Assembly: GCA_035353335.1 (NCBI GenBank)
Contig: DAOPZJ010000004.1
Location: forward strand, 15,555-79,554
Reading direction: 5' to 3'
Source: Oscillospiraceae bacterium
GTDB taxonomy: Bacteria > Bacillota > Clostridia > Oscillospirales > JAKOTC01
DNA length: 64,000 bases
In this document: positions 5,877 to 50,122 of the stretch, in pieces
Layout of the letters: each line of letters begins with the position of its first letter
How positions within the stretch are numbered: position 1 is the stretch's first letter
Program-made: the position numbers and the translations under genes
Notes under the pieces: generated by a model
Told to the model about the DNA's origin: nothing
Database searches by the model: none
The model's input: only the letters and a program-made list of their open reading frames with translations

Positions 5877-6893
5877 ATGGATAAATTACAATCAAAGGTC
5901 AGAGTAGCTCTGGTGGGCTGCGGAAGTTTTATCCGCGCCATGCATGTCCCGATTTTAAAGGCGAACCCAAAGTATGAGATTCGCGCGACCATGGACATCA
6001 GTGAGACCGCCGCTATGGATACCGCAAAAGAAACCGGGGCGGCTTATTTCACCACCGATATCGATAAGATTTTGTCCGATGATCAGGTTGACGCGGTCTT
6101 TATCGGCACACGACACGACACCCATGCGGCGCTGACCGTCAAAGCGGCTAACGCGGGCAAACATGTGCTGTGCGAAAAACCGATGGGCCTGAACCGCGAG
6201 GAATGCCGCGCCGTCGTCGAAGCTGTACGCAAAGCGGGCGTCAAATATACGGTTGGCTATAATCGCGGCATGGCGCCGATGATCGTCGCCGCGCGCGATC
6301 TGCTTAAGGATAACGAACATAAGAAAATGATATATCATCGCATTCAGGCACCATTCCCCGCGGACGTTTGGACGCATGACCCCAAGGTGGGCGGCGGGCG
6401 TTTTGTCGGCGAGGGCTGCCATATTTTCGATCTGCTCTGCGAGATCGTCGGCAAGCCGCCGGTGAGCGTCTATGCGTCGGGCGGCACTTTCCTAGACCCC
6501 GAAAAAGTCAGAATCCCCGACAGCGCCATCGTCACAATCACTTTCACAGACGGCTCGGTCGGCACAACGCTGATCACCAGCGCGGGCTGCTCAGCCTTCC
6601 CGAAAGAGTCCACGGAAATTTATTGCGACGGCAAGGCCATCTGGGTCAACGACTTCACCTCGATGGAATATTACGGTTTCGAAGGTCACGCCAAGACCAC
6701 GCTGGCTTTTGATAAAGTCGACAAGGGACATGCGTCCGAGATCGACCAGTTCGCCGATGCGATTTTGCTCGGAAAAGACAGCCCGAACGGCCTCACCAAA
6801 GCGGCGCGCGCGGCGGTGCTGAGCTATATGGTCAACGAATCGGTCGCAAGCGGCAAGCCGGTTGCGATCTGCGAAAAGGACTATATCTTTTAA
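5877..6893 (+). CDS. Gfo/Idh/MocA family NAD(P)-dependent oxidoreductase
   Basis: RVALVGCGSFIRAMH Rossmann start, the HVLCEKPM signature and a C-terminal alpha/beta domain. Confidence 0.85.
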   Translation: MDKLQSKVRVALVGCGSFIRAMHVPILKANPKYEIRATMDISETAAMDTAKETGAAYFTTDIDKILSDDQVDAVFIGTRHDTHAALTVKAANAGKHVLCEKPMGLNREECRAVVEAVRKAGVKYTVGYNRGMAPMIVAARDLLKDNEHKKMIYHRIQAPFPADVWTHDPKVGGGRFVGEGCHIFDLLCEIVGKPPVSVYASGGTFLDPEKVRIPDSAIVTITFTDGSVGTTLITSAGCSAFPKESTEIYCDGKAIWVNDFTSMEYYGFEGHAKTTLAFDKVDKGHASEIDQFADAILLGKDSPNGLTKAARAAVLSYMVNESVASGKPVAICEKDYIF

Positions 6894-7859
6894 ATGAATA
6901 TCGCACTTGTTTTTGATCCCAAAAAGGTTCCCAAGCTCTTTTCAGCCGAGGCCATCGCTCGGTTGGAAGCGCTCGGAGCTATGACATATCACGCGGATTC
7001 GTCCGATGTGGCTAATGCGGATGTCATCATCACCTCGTGGGGCAGCCCGGCGATTGATAAAGAGATTTTAGATCGCTGCCCGAACCTGCGGTTGGTGGCA
7101 CACGCCGCCGGAAGCGTCAAATCGGTTGTGACCGAAGAGCTTTGGGCGTGCGGTGTCCGGGTGACCAATTCGGCAAAGATGCTCGGGATGGGCGTTGCCG
7201 AGACCGCGCTGGGGTTCACCATCTGTGCGGCGAAAAATATCTTTGCACTCAATTCCGGGATTCACGGCGGCGGATGGGATGAGGGCAGGGAAAATGTGCG
7301 CGAACTCTATACCCTCACGGTCGGCGTTTTGGGCTCAGGTTGGGCGGGCGGGCATTACATCAAACTGCTGCAAAACTTCAATGTGCGCGTGCTATGCTAT
7401 GACCCGTATTTGAGCGCGGAAAAAGCGGCTTCACTGGGTTGCGAAAGAGCGACGCTCGAAGAAGTTTTAAAAAACAGCGACGTCGTCTCGATTCACGCCC
7501 CGGCGATTGAGGCGACAAACCATATGATCAACGCCGACACGCTGAAGCTGATGAAAAAGGACGCGGTGCTCATCAATACGGCGCGCGGAACCATCATCGA
7601 CGAGAAAGCGCTGTATGAACATCTTCTGGCGGGCAATCTGCGCTACGCATGCCTCGATGTCTTCGACCCGGAGCCTCCCGAGGCCGACAATCCCCTGCGG
7701 AAATTGCCGAATTGCATACTCACCCCTCATTTGGCGGGACTTGTCACGAACGGCTTACAACGGATCGGAATGCATGTCACCGAGGAAATCGGGCGGTTTT
7801 GCCGCAACGAAAAAATGGAATGCGAAGTGCTGAAAAAGAATCTTGAAACAATGGCGTAA
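6894..7859 (+). CDS. D-isomer-specific 2-hydroxyacid dehydrogenase family protein
   Basis: GVLGSGWAGG NAD-binding motif, INTARG, the LDVFDPEP motif and PHLAG. The start abuts the upstream stop. Confidence 0.85.
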   Translation: MNIALVFDPKKVPKLFSAEAIARLEALGAMTYHADSSDVANADVIITSWGSPAIDKEILDRCPNLRLVAHAAGSVKSVVTEELWACGVRVTNSAKMLGMGVAETALGFTICAAKNIFALNSGIHGGGWDEGRENVRELYTLTVGVLGSGWAGGHYIKLLQNFNVRVLCYDPYLSAEKAASLGCERATLEEVLKNSDVVSIHAPAIEATNHMINADTLKLMKKDAVLINTARGTIIDEKALYEHLLAGNLRYACLDVFDPEPPEADNPLRKLPNCILTPHLAGLVTNGLQRIGMHVTEEIGRFCRNEKMECEVLKKNLETMA

Positions 7860-20495: not shown

Positions 20496-21590
20496 ATGAA
20501 ACAGACGAAACGAATCCTTGCACTCCTGCTGGCTTTATCAATGATTGTCTTTGCCGGATGCGGTTCGAAAACCATCGGAACCAGTTCGAAACCCTTCGCG
20601 AACAGTGACGGCATTAAAGAAAACGGATTTTGGGAAGGAATAAAAGCGCGCAAATATGTAAAATTGTGCGATTATTCGTCGATTACCATCCCGAGTGAAA
20701 CCCGTGCGATTACCGGTAAGGCCGTTCAGTCAGAGATCGACGATATCCTCTCGGATTATGCCGTCGAAAATAAAGCGACAGACCGCGCTGTCGCGGACGG
20801 CGATTCCGTCAATATCGACTATGTCGGGAGCGTGGACGGCGTTGAATTTGACGGCGGAAGCACGAAAGGCACCGGAACGGACGTCGTCATCGGGAAGACA
20901 AATTACATCGACGATTTCCTGCAGCAGCTCATTGGGCACAAACCCGGTGAATCGTTTGACGTAAATGTGACATTTCCCGAAGATTACGGGGTTGAAAACC
21001 TCAACGGAAAAGACGCGGTTTTTGCCGTTACAATCAACTATATCACAGAGAGCTCCGTCCCGGAACTGACCGATGCGTTTGTCTCGGAACAATTGTCAGT
21101 TTCGCACGGATGGAAGACCGTGGCGGAAATGAAGGCGGATATATTAAACGATCTTCAGGAGGCTGCAATCACAAAATATATTCAGGATTACATTATCGGG
21201 AATTCCACAATAAAATCGCTTCCAAAGGCGATTTTAGAATATCAACAAAATTCAATGATGCTCTATTATCAAAATTATGCCAATCAATACGGGATGGAAT
21301 TTGATGAGTTTCTGAAAACCTATGCGGGATATGCCACGAAAGAAGAATTACTTGAGAAAAATCTGGAAGACAATACGAAAAGCGCAAACTACAGCCTGGT
21401 GATGCAGGCCATTGCGGAAGATGCCGGCATCTCGGTAACCGCGGACGATGTCGCTCCTTATTTCCTTAAATATTTTAATACGGACGACTATTCCGAATAT
21501 GAGACAAATTTCGGAATGCCTTATTTGATGCAGGTGGTATTGTATCAGAAAGTATTGGATTTTCTCAAGAGCAACGCGGTTTCGGCATAA
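20496..21590 (+). CDS. Lipoprotein with FKBP-type PPIase domain and trigger-factor-like C-terminal domain
   Basis: Lipobox VFAGC. GDSVNIDYVGSVDGVEFDGGS...FDVNVTFPEDY is FKBP/trigger-factor-like. Confidence 0.7.
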   Translation: MKQTKRILALLLALSMIVFAGCGSKTIGTSSKPFANSDGIKENGFWEGIKARKYVKLCDYSSITIPSETRAITGKAVQSEIDDILSDYAVENKATDRAVADGDSVNIDYVGSVDGVEFDGGSTKGTGTDVVIGKTNYIDDFLQQLIGHKPGESFDVNVTFPEDYGVENLNGKDAVFAVTINYITESSVPELTDAFVSEQLSVSHGWKTVAEMKADILNDLQEAAITKYIQDYIIGNSTIKSLPKAILEYQQNSMMLYYQNYANQYGMEFDEFLKTYAGYATKEELLEKNLEDNTKSANYSLVMQAIAEDAGISVTADDVAPYFLKYFNTDDYSEYETNFGMPYLMQVVLYQKVLDFLKSNAVSA

Positions 21591-21640
21591 CAAATAATTT
21601 TTCTTTTAGTCACAATTGAGCCATAATTCATACCGATAAT

Positions 21641-21693
21641 ATAGTAAAGCCACTTGAAATCCGACAAGTGAATCAGCGTTAAGTGGTTTTCAC
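21641..21693. repeat. Diverged copy of the palindromic element (TATAGTAAAGCCACTT...AAGTGGTTTTCAC)
   Basis: Inverted repeat with the same TATAGT prefix as the other copies. Confidence 0.5.
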
Positions 21694-21745: not shown

Positions 21746-22426
21746 ATGGTTTATCATATCCTAATTGTTGAAGATCAGCCCGAAATCAGCGGCATGGTCG
21801 CAAAATACCTTGAAATCGAGGGATATCGCGTACTTATCGCAAATGACGGATTTAAGGCGCTTGAACTCTTTAATAAGAATGAAATTCATCTTGCGCTGTT
21901 GGACATTATGATGCCCGGCATCGACGGTTTCGACGTACTTAATGAAATTCGTAAAATATCCGATATACCTGTGATCATGCTGACAGCCAGAACCGAGGAG
22001 ATCGACCGGCTGAAGGGTTTTGACACGGGCGCGGACGACTATGTCGTCAAACCTTTCAGCGTCAAAGAGATCGTGAAACGAGTCAATGCGCTGATGAAGC
22101 GCACCTACCATAACACCGATGAAATCGTATTCAGATGCGATTCGCTGAGATTACACATAAAAAGCATGAAACTTTATCAGGGTGAGAAAGAGATTCCGAT
22201 CACGGCGGCGGAATTTGAACTGCTTCGAGTGCTTTTTAAGAACAAAGGACAGGTGCTAACTCGCGAACAGCTAATTAACGCGGCGTTCGGATTCGAATAT
22301 GAGGGTTATGACCGGAATATCGACAGTGCGATCAAGCGGCTCAGGCAGAAAATCGAGGACGATCCCGCGAACCCGAAAATTTTGCGTACCAAGTACGGCG
22401 CGGGTTATGTGTTGGGAGGTGCGTAA
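21746..22426 (+). CDS. OmpR/PhoB-family response regulator
   Basis: The start MVYHILIVEDQ has an RBS. Receiver Asp context LALLDIMMPG. Winged-helix C-terminus LRTKYGAGY. Confidence 0.9.
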   Translation: MVYHILIVEDQPEISGMVAKYLEIEGYRVLIANDGFKALELFNKNEIHLALLDIMMPGIDGFDVLNEIRKISDIPVIMLTARTEEIDRLKGFDTGADDYVVKPFSVKEIVKRVNALMKRTYHNTDEIVFRCDSLRLHIKSMKLYQGEKEIPITAAEFELLRVLFKNKGQVLTREQLINAAFGFEYEGYDRNIDSAIKRLRQKIEDDPANPKILRTKYGAGYVLGGA

Positions 22427-22427
22427 G

Positions 22428-23777
22428 GTGACCATCAGACGGCAGTGGCTATGGGTTCTGACCATCACGGCGGTTTTGGCCATATGCATCAATTCCTGGA
22501 TTTCATCTTCGCTGATCAATAAATATTTCTTGTCCTACAACACCGCGAATTACAACAATCACATTAGCCAAATCGAACAACTCGCGGCAAGCGCTTTAAA
22601 AGACGGAGGCATTACAAATCAACAGCTCTCCGTGCAGCTTGAATCGCATTTGGACGACCCGATTGTCAGCATAAAACTCTATAATGCAGCCGGAATGCTT
22701 GTTGCGGAAGCTGCGAACATGCCGGGCAACGGGTATGGGATGGGAAACGGAATGGGCAACGGAATGCACTGGAATTCCGAAGAGGTTGACACCTACCGGA
22801 TCATGGACGGCGGCACGGTTTTAGGCGTCCTCAACGTCACAAGATACAGTTCACTGAGAAATTCACAGGTCGCAGTACAATTTCAAGCCGCTCTGCTTCA
22901 AAACAGCGCTCTCTCTTTCGCAATTGTTCTGGCAGTGCTGATTATTATCGGAATTTTTGTCAGCCGGAGATTGAGCCGGGATTTGACAAACACGGCCTCC
23001 CAGGCACTCAGCATCGACATGGACGGAGACACGAGTTTTAAGCCGTCAAGAGTCCGGGAAATCAGAGTGATTCAGTCGAGCCTGGATACGCTCCGCGACC
23101 GGTTGAAAATCAAACAGATCAGCAGAAAAATGACTGTGGACGAGCTTGTCCATCAGACCAGAACACCGCTCACGATTTTACAGACCCATCTGGAGGGGCT
23201 TGAGGACGGCATTACGACGATGTCGGAAGACGAGATCAAAGTGTTTCGGTCACAGATTGACAACATTACATCTATCATATCAAATATGAGCATTCTGATC
23301 GACGCCGACAGACCTGTGCAGGAACTTCACCCCGAAGAAATCGATCTGCATGTGCTGCTCAGCCAAGTTATAAGCGGTTTAAAAGTGCAGTTCGATAAAA
23401 AGAAGATTGAGCTTCAAATGCCGAATACTCAGAAAGTTATCTTGAAAACCGATCCGTATAAACTGAGCCAATGTATTTATAATCTGATCACGAACGCCTA
23501 TAAATTCATGGCTTCCGGCGGGATAGTTGAACTGTCTTATGAGACGGCTGACGCAAAGGTCTTGATACATGTGAAAGACACCGGTGTAGGAATTGCCGAA
23601 GAAGATTTGCCGCACCTGTTTGACGCCTATTTCAGAGGACATAACACTTCCGGGCGCAAAGGGGACGGACTAGGGCTATATATCGTGAAAGAGAATCTGG
23701 AGCAAATGGGCGGTTCGATCGGCGTCCGGTCAAAGCCGGGAGAAGGCAGCGAATTCACGATCACCCTTCCATTATAA
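22428..23777 (+). CDS. Sensor histidine kinase (two TM helices, HAMP, HisKA, HATPase_c) with Met/Gly/Asn-rich extracytoplasmic loop
   Basis: GTG start 1 nt after the RR stop. H-box LVHQTRTPLT. N, G1 (DTGVGI) and G2 (GDGLGL) boxes. The sensor loop contains GNGYGMGNGMGNGMH. Confidence 0.85.
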   Translation: MTIRRQWLWVLTITAVLAICINSWISSSLINKYFLSYNTANYNNHISQIEQLAASALKDGGITNQQLSVQLESHLDDPIVSIKLYNAAGMLVAEAANMPGNGYGMGNGMGNGMHWNSEEVDTYRIMDGGTVLGVLNVTRYSSLRNSQVAVQFQAALLQNSALSFAIVLAVLIIIGIFVSRRLSRDLTNTASQALSIDMDGDTSFKPSRVREIRVIQSSLDTLRDRLKIKQISRKMTVDELVHQTRTPLTILQTHLEGLEDGITTMSEDEIKVFRSQIDNITSIISNMSILIDADRPVQELHPEEIDLHVLLSQVISGLKVQFDKKKIELQMPNTQKVILKTDPYKLSQCIYNLITNAYKFMASGGIVELSYETADAKVLIHVKDTGVGIAEEDLPHLFDAYFRGHNTSGRKGDGLGLYIVKENLEQMGGSIGVRSKPGEGSEFTITLPL

Positions 23778-23792
23778 TTAATAACATACTTT

Positions 23793-23830
23793 AAACACCT
23801 CCGTCTATATGAGAACGGAGGTGTTTTTAT
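23793..23830 (+). terminator. Rho-independent terminator after the kinase gene
   Basis: AAACACCTCCGT / ACGGAGGTGTTT stem followed by TTATT. Confidence 0.65.
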
Positions 23831-23945
23831 TACCGTAAAAGATTTTTAAAATTATTTTTATGAGCATATTTCTGCCACAGTCGAATTTTATGATAGAGCC
23901 ATAACCACCGAAGACGGTGGGAATTCAAGGAGGTAAACATATACC

Positions 23946-24530
23946 ATGTTCAATTCTAAGATGAAAAAGATTCTTGCAGCCGGCGCTGCGGTTCTCGCAT
24001 TATCGGCATTGTCCATTACCGCTTTTGCGGCATCCGCTTATAAAAGCCCCGCGGAAGCCGTTGCCGCGCTGACCGGAAAAACGGTTGAAAGCGTCGTCGA
24101 CCAGCGGCAGGAGACCGGAGACACCTACTGCACGATCGCAAGCGAAGGAGGCGTTTTGGATGAATACAAAGCATCTGTGCTTCAAATGAAAAAAGATACT
24201 TTGAATGCGCGGGTCGCCGCAGGCACATTGACGCAAGAGAGAGCTGATGAGATTATAGCGGCCATTGAAAAAAATATGGCCGACTGTGATGGAACCTGTG
24301 ACGGTAACGGCGGCGCAATGATGGGCCGGGGCTTCGGCGCTGGCAACGGCAACTGCGCAGGCAATGAGAGCGGGACCTGCACGGGTAACGGTACCGGGAA
24401 CGGAACCTGCACGGGCAACGGCAACACTGACGGAACTTGCACAGGCAACGGTTTCGGCGGCGGGCGCGGCGGTCAGTGCGGAATGCGCGGGCAGAACGGT
24501 TCCTGCCTGACAGCAAACAATAACGGCTGA
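23946..24530 (+). CDS. Secreted protein: helical N-domain (tentatively DUF2680-like) plus Cys/Gly/Asn-repeat tail
   Basis: Signal peptide ending AFA-ASAY. GTLTQERADEIIAAIEKNMADCDG, followed by CxGNGxGNGTC-type repeats (9 Cys in the last 80 aa). Confidence 0.6.
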   Translation: MFNSKMKKILAAGAAVLALSALSITAFAASAYKSPAEAVAALTGKTVESVVDQRQETGDTYCTIASEGGVLDEYKASVLQMKKDTLNARVAAGTLTQERADEIIAAIEKNMADCDGTCDGNGGAMMGRGFGAGNGNCAGNESGTCTGNGTGNGTCTGNGNTDGTCTGNGFGGGRGGQCGMRGQNGSCLTANNNG

Positions 24531-24560
24531 TACTGTTCAACGAAACCCTTGAAATAACAA

Positions 24561-24595
24561 GCAAGCGGGCGTCGGAAGACGCCCGCTTGCTTTTT
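24561..24595. terminator. Bidirectional terminator between convergent genes
   Basis: 13-bp stem GCAAGCGGGCGTC / GACGCCCGCTTGC followed by TTTTT. Confidence 0.7.
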
Positions 24596-24602
24596 CGATG
24601 AT

Positions 24603-25361
24603 TCAGATTTGCTTTTTGTCGAACATGAGGATTGAAAGAAAGATAAAAGACACTGTGAGGCCACCGGCGACGATCATTGCAGGATAAAAATCTGTCGGTA
24701 AAACCTGCCCGGAGATTAAACCCGTGTTCAGATTGGCGCAGCTGATGGGGTTATACTTATTCCAGGTCGGTATGATACTCATGAGCAAGGTAACTGCGAT
24801 AAGGCAGAAGGTAAACAGCAATCCGCCGTAGTTTCCCTTGAATAAAATACCGCCCAAAATCAATTCCGTGATCAACAGCACGCCGTATACCCAGAGACCT
24901 GCCGCCGAAAGAAACAGGTTCTTAACATTATCCATGCTCCAGAAATACGCTGTATAACCATAAGTGATACCAAAGCAAAGAGCATAACATGCTGTCCAAA
25001 TCAACGTTGCGGAGGTGAATTTGGACAGGATCACAACGGGCCTCGAAAGCCCTTTTGTCAGCATATTGACCAGGGTGCCTTTGCTGAATTCACCGGACAT
25101 GATGCCGCCGAACACGAGCACGACGACGATCAGCCCCATTTGGGAGACGTTTTTGAAAAATTGTCCCCAGGAGTCCAGCGCCGAGGGCGTCGGAAGCGTG
25201 ATGCTCATGCCCTCAGGCATCACCGAGCTCATGATATCCGGCAGAATTTTAGCTGTGACGGGGCTCATGATTCCGAACAGCAGAAACACAATCAGCAGAA
25301 TTAACAGCTTATGCGTCCGTGAACTTTCCATGAGTTCTTTCTTTAAAAATGCTGTATACAT
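24603..25361 (-). CDS. ABC-2 type transporter permease
   Basis: 252 aa with six TM segments, immediately downstream of the ABC ATPase. Confidence 0.7.
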   Translation of the reverse strand: MYTAFLKKELMESSRTHKLLILLIVFLLFGIMSPVTAKILPDIMSSVMPEGMSITLPTPSALDSWGQFFKNVSQMGLIVVVLVFGGIMSGEFSKGTLVNMLTKGLSRPVVILSKFTSATLIWTACYALCFGITYGYTAYFWSMDNVKNLFLSAAGLWVYGVLLITELILGGILFKGNYGGLLFTFCLIAVTLLMSIIPTWNKYNPISCANLNTGLISGQVLPTDFYPAMIVAGGLTVSFIFLSILMFDKKQI

Positions 25362-25363
25362 TA

Positions 25364-26278
25364 TTAAACCGCCTCCAAAAACAAGGTCTCGATGCTCGGC
25401 TCGAGAAGTTCGAATTTAATAGGACGCAGCCCTTTTTGTGAAAGGATGTCGATGGTGTCCTTTTGCGCGCGGGCGGCGTTTGCGGCCCTTAAAATCACCG
25501 TTGTGCCGTTTGTCTCGGTTTTGTTCAGATAGTCCGGCGTATCGATCGCCGAGAGGAAAACTTTCAGGTCATCCGGTGAACTGAATTCGATTAAAAGGCC
25601 GTCTTCGCGGTGCTGCTTTTTAATATCAGCGATGGTGCCGCAGAGCGCCAATTTACCGTTGTTAAGCAGGGCGATGCGGTCGCAAATGCGCTCCACGTCC
25701 GAGAGGATGTGGGTTGAAAACAGCACGGTGGTTTTGCCTGTGACCTGCTCCAAAATATCGAGTAATTCTTTTCGGCCGATGGGATCGAGCGCCGAGGTCG
25801 GCTCGTCACAGATGAGCAGTTTCGGCTCGTTGATCAATGCCTGCGCGATGCCGAGACGCTGTTTCATACCTCTCGAAAAGCCGCCGATTCGCTTGTTGGC
25901 CTTTTCAAGCCCGACCAAATGGATCAATTCCTCGCAGCGGCTTTTCAGAGTTTTGTGATCCAACCCCGTGATTTCGCCGCAGAGCGTCAAATATTCGATG
26001 GGTTTCATGTAGCCGTAGAACTCGGGCACGTCGGGCAGATAGCCGATAAAACGGTTGGTCCTGGTCTGACCGTACCGGACAGACTCGCCGTTGACGCGGA
26101 TGGTTCCGCTGTCCGTCTTTAGTAACCCCAGAATCATCTTCATCGTCGTGGTTTTGCCCGCGCCGTTTTGGCCGATAAAGCCGAAGATGGATTTTTCGGG
26201 CACCTCAAAAGAGATATCATCGATGACCTTATTGTCGCCGAAGCTCTTTGAGACATGTTCAAGCGTTAAGATATTCAT
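25364..26278 (-). CDS. ABC transporter ATP-binding protein
   Basis: Walker A GQNGAGKTT, signature FSRGMKQRL, Walker B LLICDEP. Confidence 0.9.
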   Translation of the reverse strand: MNILTLEHVSKSFGDNKVIDDISFEVPEKSIFGFIGQNGAGKTTTMKMILGLLKTDSGTIRVNGESVRYGQTRTNRFIGYLPDVPEFYGYMKPIEYLTLCGEITGLDHKTLKSRCEELIHLVGLEKANKRIGGFSRGMKQRLGIAQALINEPKLLICDEPTSALDPIGRKELLDILEQVTGKTTVLFSTHILSDVERICDRIALLNNGKLALCGTIADIKKQHREDGLLIEFSSPDDLKVFLSAIDTPDYLNKTETNGTTVILRAANAARAQKDTIDILSQKGLRPIKFELLEPSIETLFLEAV

Positions 26279-26320
26279 GAATCGGATTTTCCTTTCGTAT
26301 TAAGGTTGAAGTTTTATTTT

Positions 26321-26521
26321 TCAACCTTCCTCACCTTTACCGAAAACAAAGTAGACAATGGGGCCGATGATCTGGACAAAGCACATGATGATCCAAAAGA
26401 CCTTGCTGCCGAACCGGTAATGAGGGTGTTTGAGAACATGTACCAGCGCCGCAACTGTCAGCGACAATTCCGCAATGAGGATCGGGATTAAAAACGGGAG
26501 ATACTCAATCAATTTTTCCAT
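26321..26521 (-). CDS. PLDc_N-domain small membrane protein
   Basis: 66 aa with two TM helices. The pattern VLKHPHYRFGSKVFWIIMCFVQIIGPIVYFVFG is typical of the PLD-nuclease N-terminal domain family. Confidence 0.7.
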   Translation of the reverse strand: MEKLIEYLPFLIPILIAELSLTVAALVHVLKHPHYRFGSKVFWIIMCFVQIIGPIVYFVFGKGEEG

Positions 26522-27644
26522 AAGATGACCATCCTTTCATAAATAGCGCTCCCTCGAGATGATTGAGGATATTTTGATAAACGGGGTTTTGCGCCAAAAA
26601 AGTAAACGCGGGGTTATTTTTGATGATGTTTATAACATCCTGTCGAATTAACTTGATATCGCGGGGGACGCTTTTGTTGAGCTCGTTTTCCTCCAGCCAA
26701 TCGTCGAGCAGGTCAAAGTATTGGTCGCCGTGCAATTCCACCGCAAAGCTCGCAGAGGTGCAGACTCGTTCGTAACCGGCTAACATTTCAAGCGTCTTTT
26801 CCGCGTTTTGATTTGTTGCATAAGTCAGCGCGGCCACATAGTAAATCGGGGCAAGCAGATCGGGCCGGAGCCGATCGAAATCAAACACCTCGGCGACTTT
26901 GAGAAAACGGGCTAACAGAGGGTCAAACCGCCCGTCTTTCATATACAGTGACAGATAGGACGGGGCAAGACTAAGGAGGATGCCGAGATACTGGTAGACG
27001 CCTACCTGCATGACTGTCGCGGCTTTTTTGGAATCGCCCTTCATCTGATAAGCGCCCGAGAGAATGACTTCGGTGCTCATCACGGGCTTGGTGGAGCCCT
27101 CCAAAAGTTCAAGAACTTCGAGCGGTTTTTGCAGGGTCAGATAACAAATCGCCTGCATCGAGTTGGCTTGTTTTGAGAGCCAGAGGTCGTCTCCGTCGGT
27201 CTTGATATGTTCGCATAACCTGATGATCTCATTCAAAATCTCCTGCTGCTTTTCGGGTTCTTTCGCCAGCGGATGGTGGTTCAATAACAGCGCCGCAATC
27301 TCAAAGACCAACGGGAAGCAGGCGTAATACTTTTTTACGAGTTCCCTGCACTCTGCGTAAACCTCCTCAAAGGGTTTACTGCTGAAATCATGTGCAAGGC
27401 GGTTATAGTTTTTTTTAATATCCTCGGCGGTCATCTGGGGCAGGTAGCCGATCAGCTCGTCGATGCTGATGTTGAAATAGGCGGCAAGGCGCGGCAGAAA
27501 CGTGATGTCGGGATAACTCTGTCCGGTCTCCCACTTGGAGACCGAGGCCTTTGAGACGCTCATGTATTCGGCGAGCTCATCTTGCGTAATGTTTCTTTCG
27601 TGCCGCTTTGCGGCAATCACCGTCGAAATGTTGATCTCTTTCAA
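26505..27644 (-). CDS. XRE-family HTH transcriptional regulator with long helical (TPR-like) C-terminal domain
   Basis: N-terminus IAAKRHERNITQDELAEYMSVSKASVSKWETGQSYPD. About 300 further residues look helical-repeat-like. Confidence 0.8.
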   Translation of the reverse strand: MKEINISTVIAAKRHERNITQDELAEYMSVSKASVSKWETGQSYPDITFLPRLAAYFNISIDELIGYLPQMTAEDIKKNYNRLAHDFSSKPFEEVYAECRELVKKYYACFPLVFEIAALLLNHHPLAKEPEKQQEILNEIIRLCEHIKTDGDDLWLSKQANSMQAICYLTLQKPLEVLELLEGSTKPVMSTEVILSGAYQMKGDSKKAATVMQVGVYQYLGILLSLAPSYLSLYMKDGRFDPLLARFLKVAEVFDFDRLRPDLLAPIYYVAALTYATNQNAEKTLEMLAGYERVCTSASFAVELHGDQYFDLLDDWLEENELNKSVPRDIKLIRQDVINIIKNNPAFTFLAQNPVYQNILNHLEGALFMKGWSSYGKID

Positions 27645-48337: not shown

Positions 48338-49504
48338 TTATCCTTTGCCTTTTACGCCGTTGTTGGCACCGTTATTACCGTTCGGAGTGCTCACGCAGGA
48401 AGATGAACAAGACGAGGGGCAGGAGGATGTGCAGGAAGACGGGCAGGAGGATGTGCAGCTGCTTGTGTTCTTATTATTACCATACCCGTTGCCGTTACCA
48501 TTGCCGTTATTTCCGGGTGTCGTCGAAGATGCGGTCGGTTTGTTTCCCTTGTTTTCTTTCTCTTTTTCCTGGTTAGAAGAGGTCTTATTCGAGTTTTTGT
48601 TTTGATTGCCGTTTCCGCTTTGGCCGATCGTGCCGCTTTGGCCGATGGTCACGTCTTCGTCATCATCTTTCAATCCTTGGGTTTTCAAAGCTGCGTTGCG
48701 GATGCGCTGGAGCGAATCGGCATTAGAGCCGTTGCCCTGGCCGTTGCCGTTGCCGTTGTTTCCGGGTTGATTGCCGAGCAGTGCGTTTCCTGCCGCGATG
48801 ATTTCGCTGATCTTGGCGTTTTTATATTGTTCAATGGTGATCGAGGGGTCAAGGGACTGCAGGATTTGAATCAGTTTATACTTTCCGGGAGACACGCCGA
48901 GTTCCCGCGCTTTCTGTGCGAAATGCAGGGTGATTGCATCGGTGTAGACGGTCGCAGTGGTTTCGCCTTTGTTTAAAGTAAGCGTAATACAATTTTCACA
49001 GATGGTTTGAATCCGTGCGGCTGTTTGTTCGTTGTTGGATTCGGCGGTGACTGCAATGACCGAAGAGCCGTCATCCTTGATGTAGCCCTGAGCGCCGGCT
49101 TGCTCGACCAGACCGCTGACGGCGTCTTCCAAAGACAGATTTTTGACATCGACTCCGGCAAGCAGATTTTCACCGTCGTCGTTATAGGCCTTCGCCGAGA
49201 CAACGCTTCCGAAGGCGTTGACGCCGAGTTCCACACTCGGATTGATGTCAACACTGACATAATTGACAGGGGTGGCGTAAAGGACGAACCCACCGACCGT
49301 AAGCAGCGCGCAGGCGGCGACGGCAGAGATGGCACCGAGGATTTTCTTCATAAACGGATTCTCCTTTTTATTTGTTTTAGTCCGGATGGTTCCCATGCGC
49401 TCATATTCCGATTTCGCAAGTTCCGTCCGAACGAAGGCCTTGGTCTTTTCTTTCAAGGTCCCTTCGGCTTTGATTTTGTTCAAATCATCGGAAAAGGATG
49501 TCAT
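48338..49504 (-). CDS. Membrane-anchored anti-sigma factor-like protein with low-complexity Gly/Asn and Cys/Ser-repeat tail
   Basis: 4-nt overlap with the ECF sigma gene. One TM helix (ILGAISAVAACALLTVGGFVLY), an extracytoplasmic domain, then GNNGNGNGQGNG ... CTSSCPSSCTSSCPSSCSSSC. Confidence 0.65.
   Translation of the reverse strand: MTSFSDDLNKIKAEGTLKEKTKAFVRTELAKSEYERMGTIRTKTNKKENPFMKKILGAISAVAACALLTVGGFVLYATPVNYVSVDINPSVELGVNAFGSVVSAKAYNDDGENLLAGVDVKNLSLEDAVSGLVEQAGAQGYIKDDGSSVIAVTAESNNEQTAARIQTICENCITLTLNKGETTATVYTDAITLHFAQKARELGVSPGKYKLIQILQSLDPSITIEQYKNAKISEIIAAGNALLGNQPGNNGNGNGQGNGSNADSLQRIRNAALKTQGLKDDDEDVTIGQSGTIGQSGNGNQNKNSNKTSSNQEKEKENKGNKPTASSTTPGNNGNGNGNGYGNNKNTSSCTSSCPSSCTSSCPSSCSSSCVSTPNGNNGANNGVKGKG
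48396..48467. repeat. Three degenerate 24-bp tandem units inside the anti-sigma gene
   Basis: CAGGAGGATGTGCAGGAAGACGGG x about 3. On the minus strand these encode the CTSSCPSS repeats. Confidence 0.7.
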
Positions 49505-50001
49505 TCGAGTTCACTCACTTTCTTTTTCAGGCGGGACTTTGCGCGGCGGAGCAAGGAATAGGCAGTGTTCGGGTTGATTTGCATGATTTTTGCGATCTCC
49601 GGGATCGGTCTGCCCTCGTAATAATGCAGGTAGACAACCTCTTTTTGATCGGGAGGCAGTTCCAGCACCGCTTTTGTCACATCGCTCTGCTCGGGGAGTT
49701 CATAAGGGATCTCCTGTTCGTCGATATCGACAACGTTTTTGCGCCAAAAGCTCTTGTGCAGGTCTTTGCATTGATTGAATGCAACGCGGCACAGCCACGC
49801 TTTTTGGTGTTCCTCGCTCTCGAATGTGTCGAAGTTTTGGAAAAACTTCAGAAACACTTCTTGAAACACATCCTCGACGTCGGCGTTGTTTTTCAGGTAA
49901 AGAAAGCAGATACGGCGGACCATGTCGGAGTATTTTTCAATTGCCGTCGTGATGTAGTCGTTGGAACCGGATGGACTCACTGCCTTCCCCCCTTCCACCA
50001 T
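49501..50001 (-). CDS. ECF (sigma-70 family, group 4) RNA polymerase sigma factor
   Basis: Region 2 (DVEDVFQEVFLKF) and region 4 (EGRPIPEIAKIMQINPNTAYSLLRRAKSRL). Confidence 0.85.
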   Translation of the reverse strand: MVEGGKAVSPSGSNDYITTAIEKYSDMVRRICFLYLKNNADVEDVFQEVFLKFFQNFDTFESEEHQKAWLCRVAFNQCKDLHKSFWRKNVVDIDEQEIPYELPEQSDVTKAVLELPPDQKEVVYLHYYEGRPIPEIAKIMQINPNTAYSLLRRAKSRLKKKVSELE

Positions 50002-50122
50002 AAATACGAATGAAAGTGACGAATCCGTTTATGATTTAAAAAAATTTTATCATATTTTTTTATTTTTCACAAGAAAGCCGCAAAGGCCATCTGTCCTTTG
50101 CGGCTTAATCAATGAAGTCTAT

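Follow-up and report, generated by a model that had tools for sequence, protein, structure and literature searches.

When a regulator–kinase pair is followed by a small secreted protein with a low-complexity tail, do the three genes act together and, if so, in response to what? We addressed this question for a stretch of 64,000 nucleotides from an Oscillospiraceae bacterium (assembly GCA_035353335.1, contig DAOPZJ010000004.1, positions 15,555 to 79,554; hereafter the window), in which genes for a response regulator (21746–22426), a sensor histidine kinase (22428–23777) and a secreted protein of the Pfam family DUF2680 (23946–24530) follow one another. Coordinates are those of the window and lie on the forward strand unless marked otherwise. 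We find that the genes for kinase, regulator and secreted DUF2680 protein form a three-gene signalling unit that is conserved among anaerobic Gram-positive bacteria. Because a conserved direct-repeat box stands at the promoter of the secreted protein, its control by the regulator is very probable. Systems of this kind, in which a kinase–regulator pair is joined by an autoregulated secreted accessory protein, are well known; the protein family, the host range and the Gly-rich features are new. We know of no earlier description of the linkage of DUF2680 to two-component systems, of the promoter box or of the paired low-complexity features.

Conservation of the three-gene unit

A family-profile scan, with one genome per species, yielded 80 DUF2680 loci, the layouts of which were established by tblastn with the regulator and kinase of the window. 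The hosts include Oscillospiraceae, Syntrophomonas, Peptococcaceae, Desulfosporosinus, Pelotomaculum, Anaerovoracaceae, Lachnospiraceae and Acidaminococcaceae, and distant DUF2680 relatives occur in Chloroflexi, an actinomycete and Erysipelotrichaceae. A regulator–kinase pair adjoins the DUF2680 gene in 64 of the 80 loci, or about 84% of those with enough flanking sequence. This count includes four linked loci that were mis-scored by the thresholds (L005, L009, L011 and L030), and four of the 16 non-linked loci have flanks too short to judge. The pair lies divergently and directly upstream in 37 loci, upstream and co-directional, as in the window, in 19, and downstream in 4.

All-versus-all clustering of the open reading frames (ORFs) of these loci returned only kinase, regulator and DUF2680 as conserved, in 64 loci each. 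The three nearest relatives of the window protein (L085–L087) share its regulator–kinase–DUF2680 order. The original prediction, made from the letters of this DNA before any database search, had offered the linkage between kinase and repeat protein as one point on which it could fail; the linkage proved to be conserved, both family-wide and in these closest relatives.

A candidate regulator box in place of the −35 element

At PhoB promoters, an OmpR/PhoB-type activator bound to the pho box substitutes for the −35 element. Upstream of DUF2680 genes and of many of the regulator genes, a pho-box-like direct repeat (AAAACAYACTTTTGCCAYA) likewise takes the place of the −35 element. The 22-nt element upstream of DUF2680 genes reads AAAACAYACTTTTGCCAYAnnT, and has the form CTATCATACTTCTATCACAATT in the co-directional subgroup; its two CAYA half-sites have an 11-bp period and end 9–10 nt before a TATAAT-like −10 element. 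Sites were scored with a matrix built from other genomes, with the window excluded and other clades dominating. In a leave-one-out analysis of 34 loci, no site on either strand of the whole locus outscored the box upstream of the DUF2680 gene in 28 of them. Matches of at least 15 bits over 79 loci lie upstream of DUF2680 genes (45), regulator genes (20) and a polyferredoxin gene (4), with 3 further matches upstream of variant DUF2680 genes and about 10 where the ORF call failed. Divergent loci carry two boxes back to back, as expected of a divergent autoregulated pair.

Scanning the window on both strands (128 kb) gave six matches of at least 12.2 bits, two of them at expected promoter positions. 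One, TGAGCATATTTCTGCCACAGTC (23861–23882, 12.2 bits), has the half-sites GCATA and CCACA, 11 bp apart, and occupies the −35 position of the DUF2680 gene; it is followed by the −10 element TATGAT (23889–23894) and, ahead of the gene, the Shine–Dalgarno sequence AAGGAGG (23927–23933). The other, the candidate box TAGTCACAATTGAGCCATAATT (21607–21628, 14.1 bits), lies upstream of the two-component operon, where a promoter scan pairs TTGAGC with the −10-like TATAGT at 21640–21645. In the alignment with L085–L087, AGCATATTTCTG(C/A)CACAG, the −10 element, a hairpin in the 5′ untranslated region (5′-UTR) and the Shine–Dalgarno sequence are invariant, and the sequence upstream of them diverges.

The regulator–kinase operon ends in an intrinsic terminator (23793–23828), a hairpin followed by a U-run that folds at −19.5 kcal/mol (z = −6.45; 0 of 200 shuffles fold equally well); a simple terminator scan had not flagged it. 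With the genes, this hairpin and a dedicated promoter all located, the predicted arrangement of a two-component system, a terminator and a separately transcribed secreted protein of 194 amino acids stands. We consider the secreted protein probably to be the dedicated, and probably autoregulated, output of the system. Its likely control by the regulator fits the earlier idea of a co-sensor or buffer.

Several observations concern the promoter region and the reach of the box. The 5′-UTR hairpin (CCACCG-aaga-CGGTGG, 23905–23920, fold z = −2.76) lies just past the predicted transcription start, at the extreme 5′ end of the predicted DUF2680 messenger RNA (mRNA) and after a conserved (A/C)CATAGCA element. 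It is kept in L085–L087, and a comparable hairpin occurs in 15 of 28 loci; it may stabilize the mRNA. An Rfam search of this leader returned only sub-threshold noise and no family. Five DUF2680 genes (L035, L039, L051, L056 and L028) have no adjacent two-component system and still carry the regulator box, which suggests that they are paralogues regulated in trans. We also considered a wider regulon within the window, for which the other matrix matches lie at 50036(+), 49132(+), 59601(−), 41420(−) and 34102(−). Compared with the ORF list, the first two are not placed as promoters: 50036 faces away from a sigma factor gene and 49132 falls within an anti-sigma factor gene.

The next commonest neighbour of the family is a NapH/MauN-like membrane polyferredoxin (Fer4_5 plus a 4Fe-4S dicluster domain), found inside or beside the module in 11 of the 80 loci. 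Examples are L025 (6576–7718), L029 (6522–7874), L049 (9156–10271), L053 (6471–7322), L066 (6584–7981), L005 (3811–4665) and L011 (2633–4036), in the coordinates of each locus. Where the regulator box precedes it (4 loci), the polyferredoxin may be a further member of the regulon.

The secreted protein and its repeats

The N terminus of the window protein is of the Sec type, with a K-rich start, a hydrophobic core and an AFA↓AS cleavage site (signal peptide, residues 1–28, 23946–24029). A profile search places the protein in Pfam DUF2680 (PF10925) at 31.8 bits against a gathering cut-off of 25 (E = 1.6e-07, residues 71–112), so the tentative recognition of a DUF2680-like N-terminal domain was correct; its homologues score 20–38 bits against the same model. 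The Pfam model, named for YckD of Bacillus subtilis, spans only about 42 residues and covers the G-x-[LMI]-T-Q-E-x-A-D helix-hairpin region, whereas the window protein adds a signal peptide, a five-helix domain and a Gly-rich tail that starts with CDGTG. We found no description of DUF2680 with this architecture or with two-component linkage, and NCBIfam holds no family for the secreted protein. A weak SHOCT-like match of the domain suggests a generic helix-hairpin.

The family is large. A database search returned 239 homologues of the window protein, and the family profile matched 3367 clusters (50% identity) at E ≤ 1e-3, and 813 at E ≤ 1e-10, among 1.84 billion cluster representatives. Family alignments show a conserved signal-peptidase site, TAFAAS, and a highly conserved mature domain (...TPAEAVAGLTGKTVESV..ER.ETGKTYGTIA.EAGKLEEFK...KKD.L...VAAGTMTQERADEII.A.E.NQ). 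AlphaFold2 (AF2), run with 106 sequences, predicts five helices at residues 31–113 (predicted local distance difference test (pLDDT) score >90) and a disordered tail at residues 114–194 (24285–24527; pLDDT <50). The first Cys of the tail, in the motif NCDGTG, is invariant in the 106 sequences, and the tail continues with a semi-conserved GQxMGAGFG start and then variable GxG repeats. Over 119 family tails, 32 to 103 residues in length, the composition is 38% G, 7.5% Q, 7.5% N, 5.7% R, 5.6% C, 3.9% M and 0.4% H, with a median net charge of +2; at least two Cys are present in 110 of the 119, and a Cys lies among the last 12 residues in 107.

The tail of the window protein is richer in Cys than most. 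The original prediction counted nine Cys in it: the protein does contain nine, eight of them in the tail (with 0 His and 3 Met), and the ninth, C62, in the helical domain. The CxGNG repeats that it described are present, and are visible in the DNA as a 30-nt tandem repeat (24371–24451; 2.7 copies, TRF score 92, 80% matches) that codes for GTCTGNGxxx units. It had named strain-specific low-complexity drift as a reading that would refute it. Gly-rich, Cys-bracketed tails and Gly/Met-rich kinase loops are found family-wide and are not such drift; the expansion into Cys-rich CxGNG repeats occurs only in the clade of the window, where the number of copies varies.

There is a real chance, if one somewhat short of even, that the Cys-rich repeats arose by neutral slippage in a generic Gly-rich tail and are themselves without function. 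Their encoding by a tandem DNA repeat points that way, as does a 92%-identical homologue (P0002) that is shorter by exactly one unit. High Cys counts are confined to the clade of the window (P0001–P0008, P0013 and L023), most family members having two or three Cys, and low-complexity runs of GNG and SSC also occur elsewhere in this genome, in an anti-sigma factor that is not related. Against this reading stand the retention of the reading frame and of one Cys per unit, and several clade members that keep multiple TC(T/D)G units despite 30% divergence.

Some family members depart from this architecture. Variants of about 300 amino acids (L071, L075, L076, L070 and L077), which come from Acidaminococcaceae, an Acholeplasmataceae genome and an actinomycete, carry an additional region at the N terminus, and CDGTG is missing from most of them. 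Four of them (L071, L075, L076 and L077) adjoin a regulator–kinase pair, the flank of L070 being too short to judge, and the box is present in L071, L075 and L076. One Acidaminococcales bin contains two modules in a single genome (L004 and L075). Just downstream of the DUF2680 gene of L046, a small ORF (6725–7009; MPRGDGTGPIGAGPMTGRR...GFGAGRGMGGFNC) resembles the DUF2680 tail in its DGTG, Cys and Gly-rich motifs; it may be similar to DUF5320.

Regulator and sensor kinase

The regulator (226 amino acids) is of the OmpR/PhoB family, with Response_reg (1.2e-29, 103.2 bits) and Trans_reg_C (7.8e-24, 84 bits) domains, and is 37–44% identical to DUF2680-linked regulators elsewhere. The kinase (449 amino acids, with the GTG start of the source-assembly gene call) is a class I transmembrane histidine kinase: HATPase_c scores 99.3 bits, HisKA 25.7 bits, slightly below its cut-off of 26.9, and the H-box HQTRTPL is present. 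Neither protein reaches any NCBIfam equivalog cut-off, including those of the heavy-metal, WalK, BaeS and CpxR models, and by sequence the regulator belongs to no named orthologue group.

Two transmembrane helices enclose an extracytoplasmic domain of the kinase at about residues 36–146, ahead of the HisKA/HATPase_c core. An AF2 model of residues 1–205, of moderate to low confidence and built from three sequences, has a transmembrane helix, two helices, four β-strands and a second transmembrane helix. A search for homologues of the sensor domain gave two database matches, which implies that this domain evolves fast and that its structure model is of limited confidence. In Foldseek searches, the ectodomain groups with extracytoplasmic PAS/PDC sensor domains (E = 7e-6 to 2e-2), among them WalK/YycG (E = 7e-6 to 7e-3) and the sensor of a Clostridium perfringens kinase (4onx), with CitA and CusS as weak matches.

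Between strands 2 and 3 of this predicted domain sits the Gly/Met/Asn-rich loop that the original prediction had picked out, NMPGNGYGMGNGMGNGMHWN (residues 97–116, 22716–22775), which is predicted to be disordered (pLDDT <50 at residues 99–115, with a value of 35). Relatives are Gly/Met-rich at the same position, with insertions and deletions of repeat units (FGMMNGKMGGMMG, FGPMKGMMH, GNRY----GMGNGMH and GGGYGMIGGMMYGRM). Under a strict criterion, 20 of 58 DUF2680-linked kinases contain a segment strongly enriched in Gly and Met (such as GMGMGMGMGRHGMGG, GGGMGMGMGMGG or GQMHGRGMMGQGMG), and Met-rich variants occur in others. Many of these loops continue with a GGYGAYLRFLDD-like motif, and kinases of the co-directional subgroup have QMPMM(R/M)N runs. 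As far as sequences can tell, the Gly/Met-rich loop is a property of the kinase family.

Comparison with known accessory-protein systems

Proteins that tune a sensor kinase from outside the membrane are well studied in Proteobacteria, with CpxP, ZraP and SilE as examples. To our knowledge, hardly any are known in Clostridia and other strict anaerobes, the envelope of which has no periplasm. We class the module described here as one that probably works like an accessory-protein two-component system, and not as a member of the CpxP, ZraP or SilE families.

The zraPSR system has been called functionally homologous to CpxPAR (PMC12314577). ZraP is the periplasmic accessory protein of this system, which responds to zinc and envelope stress in Escherichia coli and Salmonella. 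Like the window protein, it combines a Sec signal peptide, here ending in SAFA, with a small helical domain and a tail, which in ZraP is Gly/Met-rich and bears a Cys (GAGMGMGYGGCGGGGHMGMGHW / GIPRGAGMGMGYGGCGGGGHMGMGHW); E. coli zraP is divergent from zraSR, the layout of most DUF2680 loci. However, ZraR is a sigma-54 activator rather than an OmpR/PhoB-type regulator, its host has a periplasm whereas the DUF2680 host is a Gram-positive anaerobe without one, and His-rich motifs are absent here.

The cpxP gene is divergent from cpxRA and is a top member of its regulon, and its product inhibits CpxA through the periplasmic domain (PMC6737893). Like DUF2680 proteins, CpxP is small, helical and secreted, and its gene is divergent from an operon for an OmpR-type regulator and a kinase; the back-to-back boxes of divergent DUF2680 loci mirror the cpxP–cpxRA arrangement. 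It differs in its unrelated fold family and in having no Gly-rich tail, and feedback on the kinase is, for DUF2680, a proposal by analogy.

The silE gene forms a separate transcription unit beside silRS and encodes a disordered sponge that has been proposed to signal to SilS (PMC5008109). SilE and PcoE are thus comparable to the window protein as separately transcribed, secreted, disordered proteins encoded beside two-component genes. SilE binds Ag+ through His/Met motifs, however, whereas the tail of the window protein has the composition given above and does not qualify as a SilE/PcoE-like sponge; the DUF2680 protein also has a folded domain, and no efflux system lies nearby. WalK (YycG) has an extracellular PAS/PDC domain, which the predicted window ectodomain resembles, and is likewise under the influence of extracytoplasmic accessory proteins. 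The window kinase is not WalK, as it scores 138 bits against the cut-off of 725 of the WalK NCBIfam model, and the WalK partners YycH and YycI are membrane-anchored and unrelated to DUF2680.

Common descent with CpxP, Spy or ZraP was considered and rejected. The window protein has no match to Pfam LTXXQ (PF07813) or Metal_resist (PF13801) at E values up to 10, whereas ZraP itself matches Metal_resist at 4.8e-23. An hhalign comparison of the family profile with E. coli ZraP covers the signal peptide only (probability 53%), and a sequence profile search of the PDB gave only a chance helix match to 3-hydroxyacyl-CoA dehydrogenase. Nor does the model have the cradle fold of these proteins, an antiparallel helical hairpin, and Foldseek found no match in the PDB below E = 2.5. 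The family does contain an LTXXQ-like motif, G-x-[LMI]-T-Q-E-[RQK], in a single copy (MTQEQ in many members, LTQER in the window), which is a resemblance only.

A proposed envelope-signalling module

We lean towards reading the locus as a self-contained three-gene envelope-signalling module, in which the secreted DUF2680 protein is a regulator-driven output that acts as buffer or protector, as a feedback modulator of the kinase, or as both. With its PDC/PAS-like domain and the floppy Gly/Met-rich loop in it, the kinase would sense a stimulus at the external face of the membrane, and would phosphorylate the OmpR/PhoB-type regulator. The phosphorylated regulator would then bind the pho-box-like repeat that replaces the −35 element of the DUF2680 gene and switch this gene on, probably acting also at the promoter of its own operon. 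The product would be secreted through Sec as a five-helix domain with a disordered Gly-rich tail closed by the invariant CDGTG Cys and the Cys near the C terminus. At the membrane surface, it would buffer or protect against the inducing stress, damp the kinase sensor, or do both. Feedback on the kinase is suggested by analogy, and the logic would be that shared by CpxP–CpxAR, ZraP–ZraSR and SilE–SilRS.

Several points weigh against this model. The boxes of the window score only 12–14 bits with a matrix dominated by other clades, and the box ahead of the regulator gene is kept only in the near-identical L085, which makes autoregulation less certain in the clade of the window. Co-inheritance, together with the position and geometry of the repeat, leads us to infer that the adjacent regulator is the protein that binds the box. 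Among the loci with adequate flanks, about 12 are without a neighbouring two-component system; there are also three plasmid copies, and the two that were inspected (NZ_CP086158.1 and NZ_CP007453.1) are orphans among mobile-element genes. Loop and tail show no co-evolution in composition: the similarity of matched pairs is 0.468 against 0.461 for shuffled pairs (permutation p = 0.39), which argues against a specific recognition code between the two. With no homology to CpxP, Spy or ZraP found, their mechanism is not transferable by descent. A full-text literature search returned nothing functional on DUF2680 or YckD, and Desulfosporosinus copper transcriptomes were likewise silent.

Should the model hold, a large family without an assigned function would gain a concrete role: its members would be secreted partners dedicated to one particular kind of two-component system and controlled by the regulator through a defined box. 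A convergent solution in Gram-positive anaerobes would broaden the accessory-protein principle, and the module would be a compact, portable three-part sensor cassette. A more far-reaching version, which we put forward tentatively and regard as doubtful, is that the modules form a widespread, previously unrecognized system for sensing envelope stress, soft metals or redox state in anaerobic Gram-positive bacteria and some Chloroflexi and Actinobacteria, convergent to ZraPSR and CpxPAR. In it, the kinase loop and the secreted tail would share a ligand or bind each other, with the secreted protein titrating the signal at the kinase. Such sensing of one low-complexity segment by another would, if true, be undescribed for histidine kinases.

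Candidate stimuli

Judged by composition, thiol-reactive, soft-metal or redox stress ranks first among the possible stimuli. The specificity for metals or redox state that was originally put forward gained no support beyond this composition, and the two more specific versions of it fare as follows.

It is unlikely that a thiophilic metal (Cu(I), Ag(I), Zn or Cd) is what the module senses and buffers, with Met of the loop and Cys/Met of the tail binding the ion and the tail acting as a sponge like SilE, PcoE or ZraP. In its favour, the kinase loops are rich in Met, which makes up about 20% of their non-Gly residues and forms GMGMGMG and MPMMMM runs, motifs such as GMHGSGM and GHGHG appear in the tails of the relatives from Chloroflexi and Actinobacteria, the tail of ZraP resembles the kinase loop of the window, and members of the window's clade have up to 8 tail Cys. 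Across loci, the His contents of loop and tail are correlated (rho = 0.63, uncorrected p = 0.003), His being the only residue that correlates. Yet the family tails, poor in His and Met, with 5.7% Arg and a positive median net charge, are unlike known metal sponges. A regular-expression screen of the 79 neighbourhoods for P1B-ATPases and heavy-metal-associated (HMA) motifs turned up no HMA motif and a single P-type ATPase, which lacks the CPx motif; no metal-efflux genes lie near these loci. Both proteins also score far below the heavy-metal models, the kinase at 98.6 against 292.55 (TIGR01386, cztS_silS_copS) and the regulator at 184 against 279.2 (TIGR01387, cztR_silR_copR).

Sensing of thiol or redox state (oxidant or oxygen) is also quite improbable as the specific function. 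The bracketing Cys would form a reversible disulfide that reports extracytoplasmic redox state, and the module would control redox protection. This fits the invariant first Cys and nearly invariant C-terminal Cys on either side of a variable loop, the anaerobic hosts (for example, Oscillospiraceae, Syntrophomonas, Desulfosporosinus and Pelotomaculum) and the NapH/MauN-like polyferredoxin, which belongs to the module at 11 loci and has the box upstream in 4. However, the polyferredoxin is missing from most loci and from the window, the kinase loops are without Cys, and no thioredoxin-like or Dsb-like neighbour is conserved.

A quorum-sensing-like peptide circuit, in which the variable tail would be released from a secreted pro-protein and sensed by the kinase, is very improbable: the kinase–regulator pair, small secreted product and positive autoregulation are the classic Gram-positive pheromone layout, boxes stand at both promoters and the tail varies while the remainder is conserved, but this tail is of low complexity, ranges from 32 to 103 residues and does not covary with the kinase loop, the module is not linked to genes for processing or export, and conservation is highest in the folded domain, contrary to what one would expect of a mere pro-region.

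Genomic surroundings of the module

We found no second DUF2680 gene, second two-component system or polyferredoxin in the 64-kb window. Directly upstream of the two-component operon, a gene at 20496–21590 encodes a lipoprotein-like product (…FAGCGS) with FKBP and trigger-factor C-terminal domains, a candidate extracytoplasmic foldase; the near-identical L085 has this gene, and L086 and L087 do not.

On the other side, a strong bidirectional terminator (24559–24592; 15-bp stem, −33.6 kcal/mol, z = −6.9) separates the DUF2680 gene from a convergent ABC-transporter operon (24603–27644, reverse strand), in which genes for an ABC-2 permease and an ABC ATPase are joined by those for a small PLDc_N membrane protein and an XRE-type regulator. 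In L085 and L086, the first three of these genes likewise lie downstream of the DUF2680 gene, whereas the XRE-type regulator gene does so in L085 only; none of the four is conserved in the wider DUF2680 family.

Clusters of G[NQM]G are confined to three ORFs of the window: the kinase loop, the DUF2680 tail and an anti-sigma factor (48338–49504, reverse strand), on which a similar tail had been noticed in the original prediction. This protein is RsgI-like (Pfam RsgI_M, 2e-33), and its gene overlaps that of an ECF/SigI-like sigma factor (49501–50001, reverse strand). Its extracytoplasmic C terminus is pure low complexity, consisting of GNNGNGNGQGNG, GNNGNGNGNGYGNN and then TSSCTSSCPSSCTSSCPSSCSSSC, and both the GNGNG runs and the (xSSC)n run of the described tail are present.

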